Below, in pieces: positions 15,337-62,505 of a DNA stretch of 64,000 nucleotides. Position numbers and translations under genes: made by a program. The stretch comes from a virus. The notes under the pieces are model-generated. The model was not told the origin of the DNA. It saw only the letters and a program-made list of their open reading frames with translations, and ran no database searches. The stretch lies in IMG/VR virus record IMGVR_UViG_3300026488_000010. One strand, 5' to 3'. The stretch's first letter is position 1, and the number at the start of each line of letters is the position of its first letter.

Positions 15337-15375
15337 ATTATATTCCTTAATAAATTATTTTTTTGTTTTTGATAA

Positions 15376-15530
15376 AACTATCTTTAAAGATCGTTTCGAA
15401 GTTAGTATAGAAATTAATTTAATTTATTTCTATACTAACTAAAACGATCTTTAAAGATAGAAAAATATGCCAAGAAAACGATCTTTAAAGATAGAAATGT
15501 TTTTACCAAAACGATCTTTAAAGATAGAAA
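15376..15530. repeat. Cluster of four ATCTTTAAAGAT palindromes plus a 41-bp hairpin upstream of terminase
   Basis: Palindromes near 15376, 15441, 15475, 15508; hairpin 15400-15440. Confidence 0.9.
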
Positions 15531-27910: not shown

Positions 27911-27948
27911 GCACAAGAAAGTTCCTAGAGATACTATATCTCTAGGAA
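27911..27948 (-). terminator. Hairpin + TTTCTTGTG signal
   Basis: 12-bp stem TTCCTAGAGATA/TATCTCTAGGAA. Confidence 0.6.
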
Positions 27949-27976
27949 AACGATCTTTATCGATAAAGATCGTTTT
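27947..27976. repeat. 30-bp perfect palindrome AAAACGATCTTTATCGATAAAGATCGTTTT
   Basis: Identical copy at 50261-50290; hybrid copy at 41742-41771. Confidence 0.9.
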
Positions 27977-41733: not shown

Positions 41734-41776
41734 ATTTTTCCTTTTCTATCTTTATCGATAAAGATCGTTTTGTAAT

Positions 41777-50244: not shown

Positions 50245-50289
50245 TTTATTTCCTTTTTGTAAAACGATCTTTATCGATAAAGATCGTTT

Positions 50290-53200
50290 TTATATATCAG
50301 ATATTAAACCTGCGCCTTTAAAATATGTCTTAACCATATCTAAAGATGTTAAATCAGCTTTATCTATTTCGACATCCAATTCATCTGGGATTTCATTGGT
50401 TCTTAAAATAGTGTTTAACATTTGTCTCTTTGCTTTACCGGCATCTGATTTCATCGCGTGCATCTCTTTAATAAGATTATATGGTCTTTTAGATAATAAT
50501 GAATTAATATCATATAAACCAATTTTAGTTGCACCTGTTCCATCTTTAGTTCCTGAACGTCCTTGACCAGTAATCCAATTTTTACCTGTTGCTAATGAAC
50601 CACGTGTACTAGACATTGCTTGTGGAAAATGTTCCAACATATTGATTGGGAGAATCCCAACGGGAACTGATCTTTGAGTAACAATACCATTATTTTCAAC
50701 AATTTTAACTTTTTCGTTTAAAGGTATACCCAACACATCTGCTGCTTTTTGTATATCAGCCATTTTAATTTGATTCTTAAATGGTGGAACAATTGCTGGA
50801 AATGCTGGATTATTTAAAGCATCTGAATTATTAATAATTTTAATAATTTCAGCATTTGGCTTCTTAAAAAATTCATCTAATTGATTAATGATCATATGAT
50901 CATCAGTTGCGTCTAGATTTGCAAAAACCTCTTTAACTATTTTCTTTATACCTAACACTTTTTTAGATTTTGCTAAATCCATAACTGCTAAGTTCAAAAA
51001 GTATATAACTTTTCCTAAGTACATTGATAATAAAATTGATGGATTCTTTCTAGAAATAATTGATAATGGTGTACCAATAAATTCAATTTTTAAACCAGTT
51101 TCTTCTGCTATTGGTTCTTGACCATGTTTCATAATATATTGAACTGTACCTTTACCACCAGAACTGGTTAGAGTAAATTTTGAACCATTAATTACAGGGT
51201 TATGTCTTTCAATATAAACCTCAATAACAGCACCTTCAAATTCTTCACCATTGAGTTTATGTCCACCAATTGTTAACGTTTCTACATTTTCTAAATGTCC
51301 AATACAATCAGCAGCACCTAAACCTTTAGTATCTTCTTCAATACCTTTAAATTGTTTTAAACATGCATCTTGTTTATTTTGAATCTCTTCAGTTACTTTT
51401 TTATGTAAAGATAAAATTTGTTTATTTATTTTACGAGTATTTAATTTAACAACAACTTCTTTAATAACACCACCAGGTGATAAATATGATTTAGTTAAAC
51501 CATCAACAACTAATCCGATCATTAGAGAATCATCTTCTTCATTGTCAGAATCATCTATAAATGTTTCCGATGTATTAAATTTAATTAACACATCTCCAGC
51601 GTTCGTTTTTGAACCTTGATTAAGATTAATATCTTTTAACATTGCATTATCTGGAAATTTAATAGTTATTTTTTGCAAAATTTTGTTTGAATATTTTGTA
51701 TCTAATGTATCAGATACAACCCAACCATCTTCATAATTCATTCCCATATAACCCATTTCAGCAACTACTAGGTTTTTACCGATAGCGAGCTTCTGATGCT
51801 TCAAAGAATCAGTTACTGCTATCATTTGACCTTCTTCAATCTTTTGTCCTTTGTTTATAAGAACGTTGTAATTAGTTGCTATGTATATACCGCGCTTAGT
51901 ACGCGATTTAACTGGCTTTATAGAGAAGGTTTCTGTTTCACCGTCATTGTATTTGACTTTAACAATTTCATCTGTTACAGCGCTTATAACACCTGCTTTA
52001 CGAGCCTTCTTCACAAATCTATCAGAAACTAAATGTGGAACATATGCTTCAAACCCTGTCTGAACCAATGCAACATCAGGTTTCTCAAGTTGTATAAACT
52101 GAGCTGTTTGTTGATTACCCATTACTCTACGAGTAGTGTCATCATATTCAAAGAATGGTGATAATGATTCAACAGGACTCAGATTCTCAAAAGGATTAGA
52201 ATCGTTAGAGAAAGGCTTCTTAGAAATGTTTCCAAATCTATCATCAATCATTGCACCGTTAGTAAGCGTTTGATTAATACCAATACCACCATACTCATTA
52301 GTTGCGGTTGGAGCCATTACACCAAAATATGATGGATTTAAATCTCTACGATTAAGAGTTACTTGTGATTTAAGAGTATTACCAATACCCGTCTTAGTAA
52401 CTTTTAAACTTAGCATCATCTCTTCTAAAGGGTTTAGTGTTTTAGTATATTGTAATATACCAGCATCTAAAAGATTTTTAATAATAAAATCATTTTGCAT
52501 ATATATTTTTTCATTTGATAAATGCTTTCTTGTTTTAAATTTAGAAATTGCTTGATGCATCTGATTATATGCAACTGATGTGATTGTCTCAGACATTCTC
52601 AATCTATAATTATCTAAATCATATTGTGATTTAGCTGATCGAGTACCTAGTAGTTCTACCATTTCGTTTGAGAATATTCCAGCTAGATCAGTACTTTGAC
52701 CAGCATCTTGAAGTATTTTTTTAGTCGAACCATCAATAAATTTATACTCTATATCATATAAATTCTTTGCAAATCTTGCACCTTGTTTATGTTCGATAAT
52801 ATCTAACATTGTTTGAGCCAATGCTTCAATTGTTGGCTCAAAATCTCTATCTTTTATTTTATAAGTGTTAAGACCATTTGCATAATTCCATTGCTCTGTT
52901 GTGTTTGGGTACAAACATAAATATTGTCTCTCATCATTATGTTTAAAATTCATTACAATTCCAGCTTCATTATCTTTACGATCCTTAAACTGATATTTTA
53001 AATTCATTATAGAAAACGCTTTCTTAGAAGTACTTCTATTGATTAATAAAAATACAGATAATGGAACATTCTTTCCCATAATTCGCATTTCATAAAATGG
53101 TTTTGAACTCTTTGATTTTTTTAATACATCATCACCTGATAATTTATTGTTTATCTTATTATAAATATTAAATACAAAATCATTTAATAAATTTTTTGAA

Positions 53201-57934: not shown

Positions 57935-58112
57935 TTCTATCTTAAAGGATAGAAAAAATAAGAATCAAGGAAAACGATCTTTAAAGATCGTTTTATAAAT
58001 TGTCTATAAAAATGACTTTATAAAACGATCTTTAAAGATCGTTTTAGTTAGCATAGAAATTAATTTAATTTATTTCTATGCTAACTATTTTTCTATCTTA
58101 AAAGATCGTTTT
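57935..58112. repeat. Second cluster of the same palindromes plus the 41-bp hairpin
   Basis: Perfect AAAACGATCTTTAAAGATCGTTTT at 57971 and 58022; hairpin 58046-58086. Confidence 0.9.
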
Positions 58113-58122
58113 CACAATAAGA

Positions 58123-58578
58123 TTATAATTGAGGAGTATATAATTCAAAGTGAGGCAAATCATTAAAAGATTGATCATCAAATCTATCATCAGAGTCCCA
58201 ATCCAATCCAAAACGGACTTTATGTGTAATTAATCCTTCTTCAAACATCTGAGAACTGATCATACGAACCATACCCATTAAAAAATAGAATCTATTTTTA
58301 TCAGCAATTGCTCCTGAGAAGGCATTTGTTCCTTTTTTGTACGGCATTATATCAACAGCCATTGATACACCATCACCTCTATCCTGATGTCTTGATTTAA
58401 TATCAACACCATTTATTTTTGATTTACCATCATTAAACAATTGTAATTGTCTTTCATCTGAACGTAATCCTTCTAATACACTAAAGTCATAATATTTAAT
58501 AACTTCAGATAATACCATCTGAATGTCTGGATGACATGTATCGAGTTGTTCCTTTGATTTTCTTCCGAATGAGTACAT
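58123..58578 (-). CDS. Endolysin, L-Ala-D-Glu peptidase (M15C)
   Basis: CHPDIQ...EGLRSDERQ...SRH...AVDI...DLPHFEL; start re-called to 58578 (AGGAGG RBS). Confidence 0.85.
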   Translation of the reverse strand: MYSFGRKSKEQLDTCHPDIQMVLSEVIKYYDFSVLEGLRSDERQLQLFNDGKSKINGVDIKSRHQDRGDGVSMAVDIMPYKKGTNAFSGAIADKNRFYFLMGMVRMISSQMFEEGLITHKVRFGLDWDSDDRFDDQSFNDLPHFELYTPQL

Positions 58579-58982
58579 ATTGTACCTCCTATTTTTATAA
58601 GGATTTGTTGGACACATTTCTATATTAACTTTAGAAACTCTAGAAACTTTAGAAACTCTGGGAAATACAAATACGTAGTATAGAAATCAATATAGTAATA
58701 AGAATATAATATAGGATTATATTCGCAATGAAACAAAGAAGAGAGTTATAGGAACTCCTAAAAACCTAAAAGTAAAAAACCGACGATGAATGGTATATAA
58801 AAAATCAATAGAGGTAAGCGAAAGCACTCAAAACATAAAACATAAAATGCACAAAAAGTGTGGCAGTACAAAAGTACATAAGACCGGAAAATTGAACGAA
58901 GCAGTTAAGAGCTGCATATAAAAATTCCCAACTGGGGGAAATAAAATATACCAGATTTTTAATTATTATAAAAGGATCAGAA

Positions 58983-59561
58983 ATGATGAAAGTAAAAGAA
59001 ATAAGAGAATATTATAAACAATTTTTATTGCCTGTAGATAGTGATAGTGTTAGAAATTCACACGGTGTTGATCATTGTGATGATGTTTTTAATTTAATGA
59101 TAAAATTGAATAAGAAGTTGGGTTATGGTTATAGTAATGAAATAATAGCATTCGCTGCTTATATACATGATTTATATTCAGATAGTACCAATAGAACGAT
59201 ACATCATATATTAGCACATACATATGTATTGAATAGAGTAGATGATTTATTAAAAGAATTATCTGGACACGATTTATATCTAGTCGCAGATGCTGTATTA
59301 GAACATAGAGCATCATATACTGGTAAATTTAGTTCTAATCTAAGCGCATTAATATCTGCGGCAGATAGAGGATTGCCTGATTATGATTTACATTACAACC
59401 GTTCATTGGTATACAATAATGGAGATCATGATGGAGTTATTGAGCATTTAAAAGATAAGTTTAGTAGAGGTGGTTACGCTACGAAGAAGTATCCTGATTT
59501 TTATATTGAGATGTTTAAAGAAGAGTTAGAAATATTTTGGAGTAGAATTGATGCGGCATAG
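58983..59561 (+). CDS. HD-domain phosphohydrolase
   Basis: SHGVDH...IHD...HH...EHRAS...AAD metal-binding pattern. Confidence 0.8.
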   Translation: MMKVKEIREYYKQFLLPVDSDSVRNSHGVDHCDDVFNLMIKLNKKLGYGYSNEIIAFAAYIHDLYSDSTNRTIHHILAHTYVLNRVDDLLKELSGHDLYLVADAVLEHRASYTGKFSSNLSALISAADRGLPDYDLHYNRSLVYNNGDHDGVIEHLKDKFSRGGYATKKYPDFYIEMFKEELEIFWSRIDAA

Positions 59562-59669: not shown

Positions 59670-59792
59670 ATGTCAAAGAAAGAAATAGAATTAATAAAAA
59701 ATTATAAAGGTCGTGTGACGGTATGTCCATCACATGAACCAATTAGAGAAAATTTGGTGAAGAGATCACCAAAATTAACAAGATATAGTTAA
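59670..59792 (+). CDS. 40-aa hypothetical protein
   Basis: Own translation MSKKEIELIKNYKGRVTVCP...; AAAGGAG RBS. Confidence 0.4.
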   Translation: MSKKEIELIKNYKGRVTVCPSHEPIRENLVKRSPKLTRYS

Positions 59793-60025
59793 ATAAGATA
59801 GGTTAAAATCCTATCTTTTATTGAAATAAAAGACAAGAAAAAAGCGATTATATAAACATTAATTTTAATGTTTATATAATCGCTAAATTTTTTATTCTTA
59901 TGTTTTATGGATCTGCTATAAACCTTTTTAGATTTAATAGTCCTAGTTCCCAAATTAATTTCTTTGGTTGCTGTTAGATATATATTCATATCTCGAGTTT
60001 TTACAATTTTTTTAATCTTAGACAT
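59789..60025 (-). CDS. ArfA/BrfA-like basic peptide (putative ribosome-rescue factor) with in-frame terminator
   Basis: ATG 60025 after ACAGGA; GTRTIKSKKVYSRSIKHK resembles BrfA GRMTKSKK...KRKHK and ArfA QRVEKNKK...YMRKGKH. Confidence 0.5.
   Translation of the reverse strand: MSKIKKIVKTRDMNIYLTATKEINLGTRTIKSKKVYSRSIKHKNKKFSDYINIKINVYIIAFFLSFISIKDRILTYLI
59832..59884 (-). terminator. 19-bp hairpin + TTTTTCTTGTC inside the ArfA-like ORF
   Basis: Arms 59843-59861 and 59866-59884. Confidence 0.7.
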
Positions 60026-60045
60026 AATGAATCCTGTTGTTTGTA

Positions 60046-60120
60046 TGGCGCTCCGTAGGAGAATTGAACTCCTGATACTACCGTGACAGGGTAGTGTACT
60101 AACCGCTATACTAACGGAGC
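60046..60120 (-). tRNA. trnD: tRNA-Asp(GTC)
   Basis: Cloverleaf, anticodon arm CTACC-CTGTCAC-GGTAG, encoded CCA. Confidence 0.95.
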
Positions 60121-61681: not shown

Positions 61682-62505
61682 TGGACTTTTTAGAAGCTTG
61701 AGAATACAGCTTCTAAACGTGAATCTTAAAGACCTTATTTTTTAGTCTCTTTTCCACTTACGCGAGTAAGTACTTCACACGGTTGCAATTTTTATAGATC
61801 ATGCGATTGATCTCTAACTTATAACTACTCATATTTTATCAACTTGAGAACCTTGCGAGCTCTAAAAGACTACGAATCTATCATGAGACTTAATATAAAA
61901 GGATATTTGCCTTGGGGGCATCACCTCTCCATATTCAATAAATTGTATGGAATTAAACCGCTTTCGTTATAAATGAATCTGAACTTTCCATGTGCTTTCG
62001 CTTATTTAATTTTCAGTTTAAAATTTAATCTAATTTTTGTGTGATACCAATGTGTCAGATTAAGTGTGTCGTAACCTTTTGAGTCACAATATACACCACA
62101 TCAGTTGTTCAGTTTTTTACACTAAACAATCCGTTGGATTTGCTCCTTATGAGAACACTCCCAACTTCTTGAAATTCGCCCTTGCTTTTACACTTGAACC
62201 TAATTTCTACCTTTACTTGCTATTATTTATATCGTTGGATAATTGTTAAGTAGGTCCCCCTACAAATAATGCTACAGCCGTAAGCCCTCACATCCTAGGT
62301 CGTTATCCCAAACAATTCGATTTTCTTAATGTATCTCATATTTCAATAAGATATTAACGCAACAAACGTTAATCAAGTTAGCTTGCATAAACAAACTAGA
62401 TGCTAACATCTAGCGATGATTTATCAGATCACCTTTACACCACTTACATGATGATATTCGGATTATACTCCGACATAACTTTGACTGCTATGATTTTTCG
62501 CTGTT
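61682..62505 (-). ncRNA. Candidate large (~820 nt) multi-hairpin ncRNA
   Basis: No credible ORF, many stems, GAAA/GCAA tetraloops on minus strand, co-oriented with tRNA array. Confidence 0.5.

Follow-up and report, generated by a model that had tools for sequence, protein, structure and literature searches.

An ArfA-like phage mini-gene with a conserved hairpin inside its reading frame: a predicted ribosome-rescue peptide at the end of a tRNA array

In beta- and gammaproteobacteria, ArfA (YhdL; PF03889) acts as an alternative ribosome-rescue factor that depends on RF2, and BrfA (YqkK) of Bacillus subtilis is likewise an RF2-dependent rescue factor. To our knowledge, alternative rescue factors (ArfA, BrfA and ArfT) have been described in only a few lineages of bacteria. 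The tail of ArfA binds the empty mRNA channel, and its residue F25 inserts into RF2 (PMC6299226). BrfA has just a Lys-His pair in common with ArfA, and this pair touches 16S rRNA within the mRNA channel (PMC6881298). The brfA gene carries an intrinsic terminator within its ORF before the stop codon, which gives a non-stop mRNA under tmRNA control (PMC6881298). ArfT of Francisella tularensis is a peptide of about 40 amino acids with a KKGGSTNKK tail and an ordinary stop codon; it works with RF1 or RF2 and is not regulated through non-stop mRNA (PMC6299226). The initial annotation of the locus described below had assumed that ArfT is also made from non-stop mRNA, which is contradicted by the published description (PMC6299226). 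It had also assumed one motif shared by ArfA, BrfA and ArfT. This does not hold, as only Lys-His is common to BrfA and ArfA (PMC6881298) and ArfT is without the K-H motif.

The window analyzed in this study was a stretch of 64,000 nucleotides from an uncultured jumbo phage (IMG/VR record IMGVR_UViG_3300026488_000010). It had about 30% G+C and carried split multisubunit RNA polymerase beta-like genes with about 25% identity to those of jumbo phages (phiR1-37 and Fusobacterium phages). A close relative of the window was not found among 50,697 phage records. A 78-codon ORF on the minus strand, P0001, encoded a tiny, very basic product that included GTRTIKSKKVYSRSIKHK. Upstream of it, an array of eight minus-strand tRNAs ended with tRNA-Asp, 20 nt before the ATG. 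The initial annotation had described such an ORF directly after the last tRNA, with a very basic first part of about 47 residues containing this motif, and a 19-bp hairpin with a U-tract at about codons 47–62, before the stop. These descriptions were borne out, the hairpin lying at codons 48–61 (Table 1). P0001 is probably, with moderate confidence, an ArfA-type, release-factor-dependent ribosome-rescue peptide under non-stop/tmRNA control.

Table 1. Position of P0001, its parts and the neighboring features in the window.
Feature	Position	Strand	Remarks
M15-type endolysin	58123-58617	-	PHROG 465, E 3e-28
HD-domain-like protein	58983-59561	+	PHROG 3921 (function unknown); converges on P0001
Full ORF P0001	59789-60025	-	Codons 1-47 alone conserved
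Second hairpin, 8 bp	59795-59817		Between terminator and convergent plus-strand genes
U-rich tract UUUUUUCUUGUCUUUU	59827-59842	-	Abuts stem
Hairpin, perfect 19-bp stem and 4-nt loop	59843-59884	-	Codons 48-61; intrinsic-terminator stem, possibly RNase III substrate
AAAAAATTT, codons K45 K46 F47	59885-59893	-	Plus-strand reading is U-tract AAAUUUUUUA
Conserved coding core, codons 1-47	59885-60025	-	RD.NI...EINLGTR head and KSKKVYSRSIKHKNKKF tail (ArfA-like mRNA-channel motif)
Shine-Dalgarno AGGA	60032-60035	-	6 nt upstream of P0001 ATG
tRNA-Asp	60046-60120	-	Last of 8-tRNA array, immediately upstream of P0001; no terminator-like site between
GOLLD RNA	61695-62106	-	RF02032 full-length, 158.4 bits vs gathering score 150, model positions 1-416; just upstream of tRNA array

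P0001 resembled ArfA in being a tiny basic peptide with a collinear tail (R..K.KK...Y.RK.KH) and with L25 placed on F25 of ArfA. Both genes have a hairpin within the ORF a few codons past the K-H pair, which in P0001 is predicted to leave an mRNA without a stop codon, and in both the residues past the hairpin are unconserved and hydrophobic. When E. coli arfA was folded in the same way, K44-H45 was followed by a long stem from about codon 49. P0001 differed from ArfA in that it was phage-encoded, lacked the GKG of the KGKGS motif, and had a head (RD.NI...EINL.TR) that was not detectably ArfA-like. Its hairpin reads as a canonical intrinsic terminator closing a tRNA operon, whereas the stem of E. 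coli arfA is cleaved by RNase III. The likeness to BrfA was one of design. In both, an intrinsic terminator precedes the stop within the ORF (in the P0001 clade a 19-bp stem and U-tract, with the stop 11–52 nt further on), and both have a Lys-His pair in a basic C-terminal tail. BrfA differs by two N-terminal helices, for which no counterpart is proposed in P0001, and by the lack of sequence similarity. A BrfA chain was not among the PDB matches at E ≤ 10 with P0001 or either of two family profiles (A1 and A4) as query; homology to BrfA was rejected, no similarity being detected. ArfT, by its description, is similar to P0001 as a basic peptide of about 40 residues with an ArfA-like lysine-rich tail, and it ends in an ordinary stop codon, as do most P0001 relatives. 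It differs, also by its description, in having no K-H motif and no control by mRNA truncation.

A search of 5.8 billion proteins gave three relatives of P0001 (P0002–P0004) on four metagenomic contigs. Two contigs (L003 and L004) encoded an identical protein, so four lineages were compared: the window, L001, L002 and L003/L004. The start codon was kept, and an (A)AGGA or AGGGA Shine-Dalgarno equivalent was present in every homologous locus. Residues 9–47 were near-invariant across the four lineages, and identity collapsed exactly at residue 48, where the hairpin starts. In the 39-codon core, synonymous divergence was 0.13–0.37 per site and non-synonymous divergence 0.00–0.07, with pN/pS of 0.00–0.29. 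A spurious ORF was excluded by this ratio. P0001 is a protein-coding gene under purifying selection, and its selection as protein is limited to the first 47 codons.

The hairpin that follows the core had a folding energy of −28.7 kcal/mol in a 91-nt context (z = −8.9), matched by none of 200 shuffles. Its pairs were kept in all four lineages (19/19, 19/19, 18/19 and 19/19, with stems of 19–20 bp). Compared with the window stem, L001 had two double compensatory changes and L002 had four, while the stem sequence of L003/L004 was wholly different. The compensatory pairs were counted by script; in the MAFFT alignment, the hairpin of L003 was shifted by one column. The L002 stem was all A-U and weak (−14.4 kcal/mol). 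A U-rich tract followed each stem, interrupted in L003. Across the hairpin and the next 9 nt, the coding frame had no stop in any lineage, while the other two frames had 1–4 stops each. The first in-frame stop began 52, 13, 46 and 11 nt past the stem in the four lineages, the window having the value of 52. Intrinsic terminators release RNA 7–9 nt after the stem, so the in-frame stops lay beyond the expected release point. The window ORF was longer (78 codons vs 64–67 in the other lineages) because its U-tract has one extra T. Residues past the hairpin were unrelated between lineages, which would fit rare or absent translation of this part. Locus L009 carried a more distant relative (P0140, 57% identity) with its own, different 8-bp terminator and U6 tract and with the stop at +9. 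These comparisons indicate that the hairpin is selected as RNA and that the frame is selected to remain open.

Downstream of the GOLLD/tRNA operon as a whole, the P0001 hairpin was the first terminator-like site on the minus strand, and it faced convergent plus-strand genes. As a terminator in both directions, it would serve these genes as well as the tRNA operon. On the minus strand, TTTTTTCTTGTCTTTT came directly after the stem; the plus-strand tail was AAATTTTTTA, and a consensus scan scored a terminator on both strands. The terminator is bidirectional because AAAAAATTT reads as a U-tract on the plus strand, where the tract begins 3 nt away from the stem instead of abutting it. Genome compaction could be the cause of the placement of a bidirectional hairpin between the tRNA operon and the convergent genes. 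The second, 8-bp hairpin was kept in L001, L003 and L009 with compensatory change. The alternative raised in the initial annotation, that the main hairpin merely ends the convergent plus-strand genes, was rejected: the minus-strand U-tract was the better one, the second hairpin already followed the plus-strand genes, and the frame was kept open.

Other hairpins were observed in the window. A third terminator-like minus-strand hairpin (59753-59773, TTTGGTGATCTCTTCACCAAA then a U-tract) was antisense within a conserved 40-aa ORF at 59670-59792 (+), and L001 had an equivalent hairpin with a different stem sequence. A palindrome, AAAACGATCTTTATCGATAAAGATCGTTTT, or its core occurred at gene ends at 27947-27976, 50261-50290, 57971-57994, 58021-58046, 41748-41765 and 15375-15396. 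It is probably the usual terminator or a regulatory element of this phage, and it differs from the P0001 hairpin.

The similarity of the P0001 family to ArfA was investigated with profiles. The profile of the 47-aa core gave 55 proteins at E < 1e-3 among 1.8 billion representative proteins, mostly of 38–60 aa. The A4 alignment contained 49 sequences with the consensus K.RD.NI.L....EINL.TR..KSKK.YSRK.KHK. A class-level sample of 201 genomes yielded just three ArfA, so an order-level sample was added, and an ArfA profile of 31 distinct sequences from the sampled genomes was built. In hhalign, A4 matched this profile with Prob 70% and P 3.9e-5, columns 25–46 lying on ArfA 25–49. The alignment paired L25 with F25, R28 with R28, K31, K33 and K34, and continued after a 3-residue gap (GKG) with Y.RK.KH. 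P0001 residues R28, K31, K33, K34, Y36, R38, K41 and H42 thus corresponded to ArfA R28, K31, K33, K34, Y39, R41, K44 and H45, with GKG deleted. E. coli ArfA received 13.4 bits from the A4 HMM (P 2.4e-6), whereas the best of 5000 composition-matched shuffles reached 11.8. Among 177,635 distinct PDB sequences, the four best A4 matches were the ArfA chains of 5MDV, 5MDW, 5H5U and 5U4I, at weak E-values of 0.27–0.43. In the six-frame E. coli genome, arfA was the sole A4 match, also weak (E 0.5). Searches of the PDB with P0001 alone or with the noisy A1 profile produced chance matches only.

Individual members differed in their distance from ArfA. P0158 combined an RDLNIY...ELNLSTR head with a canonical KKGKGSF tail and scored 27 bits against the ArfA HMM built here. 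P0140 (KKGGKY) scored 23 bits and P0001 alone 3.3 bits. The Pfam ArfA model (PF03889, cut-off 25.5 bits) did not match P0001 or three close homologues even at E ≤ 10, and it matched one of the 49 A4 members, at 3.4e-5. The confident alignment to ArfA covered only about 22 tail columns; the head was collinear with ArfA in the extended alignment, with no significant score against the RF2-binding part of ArfA. With the homologue P0128 as query, an Atlas feature search ranked an ArfA cluster fifth and DUF7230 thirteenth, which is a weak lead. At the profile level, ArfA is the nearest known family, and the tail likeness exceeds that given by composition. The HMM comparison suggested in the initial annotation gave a divided answer, with profile likeness to ArfA (hhalign) on one side and the failed Pfam ArfA model and absent BrfA match on the other. 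The ArfA-like rescue-gene reading itself was retained in part. The conserved basic first part of the protein, ArfA as nearest family by profile, and the conserved hairpin in an open frame, which is the arfA/brfA design, supported it; the Pfam ArfA result and the lack of likeness to BrfA did not.

The preferred reading of P0001 as a rescue peptide leads to the following proposed mechanism. P0001 would be transcribed with the phage tRNA array, possibly together with the upstream GOLLD RNA. The transcript would end at the hairpin and U-tract within the ORF, or RNase III would cut there, leaving an mRNA without a stop codon. The 3' end is expected at about +7 to +9 past the stem, which would give an mRNA of about 63 codons and a non-stop product of about 63 aa, with 47 conserved and 16 hairpin-encoded residues. 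As long as tmRNA-SmpB is not fully occupied, the product would undergo tagging and degradation. Once trans-translation is saturated, which mass cleavage of mRNA or tRNA by phage or host nucleases could bring about, the product of about 63 aa would accumulate and ribosome recycling would be restored. Where ribosomes have stalled at the 3' ends of broken mRNAs, their empty mRNA channel would be plugged by the tail (R28..K31.K33K34.Y36.R38..K41H42). The head (RD.NI...EINL.TR) would recruit the host release factor, and the nascent chain would be freed. Termination or cleavage at the site, tmRNA control, ribosome binding, release-factor recruitment and a benefit to the phage can be inferred. It counts against the mechanism that the phage has its own multisubunit RNA polymerase, whose terminators may differ from canonical ones.

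A control sample of 100 distinct tail-sharing phage mini-genes was collected from IMG/VR. A terminator was inside the ORF in 2 of the 100, after the stop in 12, and absent nearby in 80; in the remaining 6 the stop was within the hairpin. With an internal terminator in just 2 of 100, the arrangement is no generic by-product of small genes beside terminators. By these counts, the internal-terminator switch is conserved and specific to the P0001 clade. Most relatives, including the homologue of Campylobacter phages, ended in ordinary stop codons, which indicates that the non-stop design is not needed for the function of the family.

The 98 mini-genes without an internal terminator can also be taken in favor of another explanation, in which P0001 is an ordinary small basic phage protein, such as a nucleic-acid binder, whose dispensable 3' end overlaps a bidirectional terminator. 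The protein would then be made from read-through or processed transcripts, and its ArfA likeness would be convergent or fortuitous. The scoring of the hairpin as a terminator on both strands between convergent genes, the failure of P0001 in the Pfam ArfA model, and the frequency of lysine-rich tails in nucleic-acid binders all fit this explanation. It was nevertheless judged unlikely. Against it stand a tail match that beats all 5000 composition-matched shuffles, ArfA as the best match in the PDB as well as in the E. coli genome, and a frame kept stop-free through four diverged hairpins, when the other frames have 1–4 stops. The separate small hairpin that already follows the plus-strand genes, and the U-tract that abuts the stem on the minus strand and lies 3 nt away on the plus strand, also argue against it.

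The tail of P0001 was found with other heads. At least 100 distinct phage mini-genes (36–79 aa, loci L136–L255) had the exact tail K[ST]KK.Y[ST]RK.KHK. By eye, the heads joined to it varied and included MKTIEVTMQEIW.ATRP, DFNGGWS.GEAAHH and KRILELRRSNAATP. Varied heads on one tail suggest a modular superfamily, in which the tail may be a targeting module and the head may set the activity. This combination of one tail with several different heads is compatible with a further explanation, in which the tail binds the vacant mRNA channel without rescue and the peptide is a phage modulator. Such a modulator might block tmRNA-SmpB, leaving phage proteins from broken mRNAs untagged, might block host ArfA or ArfB, or might leave ribosomes idle or parked. 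In that case, the non-stop design would provide feedback on the capacity for trans-translation. The confinement of the ArfA likeness to the tail, and a head (RD.NI...EINL.TR) without significant match to the RF2-binding part of ArfA, agree with this explanation. It was considered distinctly improbable, since in hhalign L25 falls opposite ArfA F25, which inserts into RF2 (PMC6299226), the head remains collinear with ArfA in the extended alignment, bridging members combine an RD.NI-type head with a canonical ArfA tail, and no such inhibitor is known.

As an extension of the rescue-peptide reading, a wider role can be put forward tentatively, as a possibility below an even chance. The ArfA-type channel plug K[ST]KK.Y[ST]RK.KHK, joined to unrelated heads, may form a phage modular superfamily that takes control of ribosome rescue, or tunes it, during infection. 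In this phage, the gene would have gained a non-stop switch sensing the tmRNA capacity of the host and would belong to a translation-maintenance operon with GOLLD and eight tRNAs, and ribosomes would be kept running while mRNAs and tRNAs are shredded by nucleases, whether of the phage or of host abortive infection.

P0001 matched the phage protein family PHROG 18092 (E 2.1e-5 with the 47-aa core as query, 1.1e-4 with the whole ORF), and no match to P0001 was found in Pfam, including DUF7230, or in NCBIfam. Among the 49 A4 members, 47 matched PHROG 18092 (best 3.5e-14), 28 matched PHROG 2701 and 9 matched PHROG 6310. DUF7230 (PF23876, cut-off 27 bits) matched 22 of the 49 at E ≤ 1, with a best value of 2.2e-7. 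All four families are annotated as of unknown function. ArfA itself matched DUF7230 weakly, and arfA was the best match of DUF7230 in the six-frame E. coli genome (E 0.95). A 44-aa ORF of Campylobacter Fletchervirus phages belongs to PHROG 18092; one example is CP81 ORF185, which is flanked by the genes for the clamp loader and RNase H and ends in an ordinary stop codon. Known members of these families, such as CP81 ORF185, are found in replication modules with ordinary stops, whereas P0001 is found at a tRNA array with a predicted non-stop design. That the ORF is unexpressed and the region merely a trailer with the terminator at the 3' end of the tRNA operon is highly improbable: the ORF is short, AT-rich, unannotated and directly after a tRNA, but its pN/pS is 0.00–0.29 despite synonymous divergence of up to 37%, its Shine-Dalgarno sequence and ATG are conserved, 55 relatives at E < 1e-3 exist in the 1.8-billion-protein library, and it matches PHROG 18092.

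In a literature search, a description of a phage-encoded ArfA-like factor or of DUF7230 was not found. The ArfA/BrfA design is known; the virus-borne gene, the divergent head, the GKG-less tail and the position at the end of a tRNA/GOLLD operon appear to be new. If the rescue-peptide reading is correct, viruses manipulate ribosome rescue, and a function is given to PHROG 18092, 2701 and 6310 and probably to DUF7230. It would also help to explain the presence of such genes beside phage tRNA arrays. The head is conserved and unlike that of ArfA, so it could reveal a new mode of release-factor recruitment. The 47-aa peptide is a compact, directly testable system.

The distribution of the family was investigated further. 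It was present in 1 of 401 sampled Pseudomonadota genomes. Profile searches with A1 and A2 gave no further relative in viral or metagenome contigs, and strict back-translated patterns gave nothing beyond the L004 contig, which was already known. P0157 and P0158 had no tblastn match in known phages, for which the low-complexity filter was probably responsible. The family so far looks mainly viral or metagenomic. Two 160-aa proteins, P0150 (L133:1295-1783) and P0153, had an ArfA-like head and tail that ran in frame into a downstream gene. This gene had its own Shine-Dalgarno sequence and ATG, and the junction had neither a stop nor a hairpin. The two proteins are either true fusions or another stop-less design. 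The relatives at L010/L011:4001-4204 and L099:254-454 were predicted as ORFs only when TGA was decoded as Trp; with table 11, this TGA is their stop, a short way past the basic tail. L010 was a bacterial-looking contig, with dynamin-like GTPases and a type III CRISPR-Cas locus as neighbors.

The genome context of the clade was also compared. There was no minus-strand terminator-like site between GOLLD and P0001, so that GOLLD, the eight tRNAs and the P0001 ORF may be one transcription unit. In the clade with the RD.NI head, a tRNA was located a few hundred nucleotides upstream of the gene in the window, L001, L002, L003/L004 and L098. A tRNA was within 500 nt at 12 of 118 tail-sharing IMG/VR loci, compared with 4.4% for random positions in the same loci. 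In L098, the gene just upstream of the ArfA-like gene (L098:709-933) weakly matched the Acb2/Tad1 hairpin domain (an anti-defence sponge family), and a tRNA-Met was located further upstream of it.
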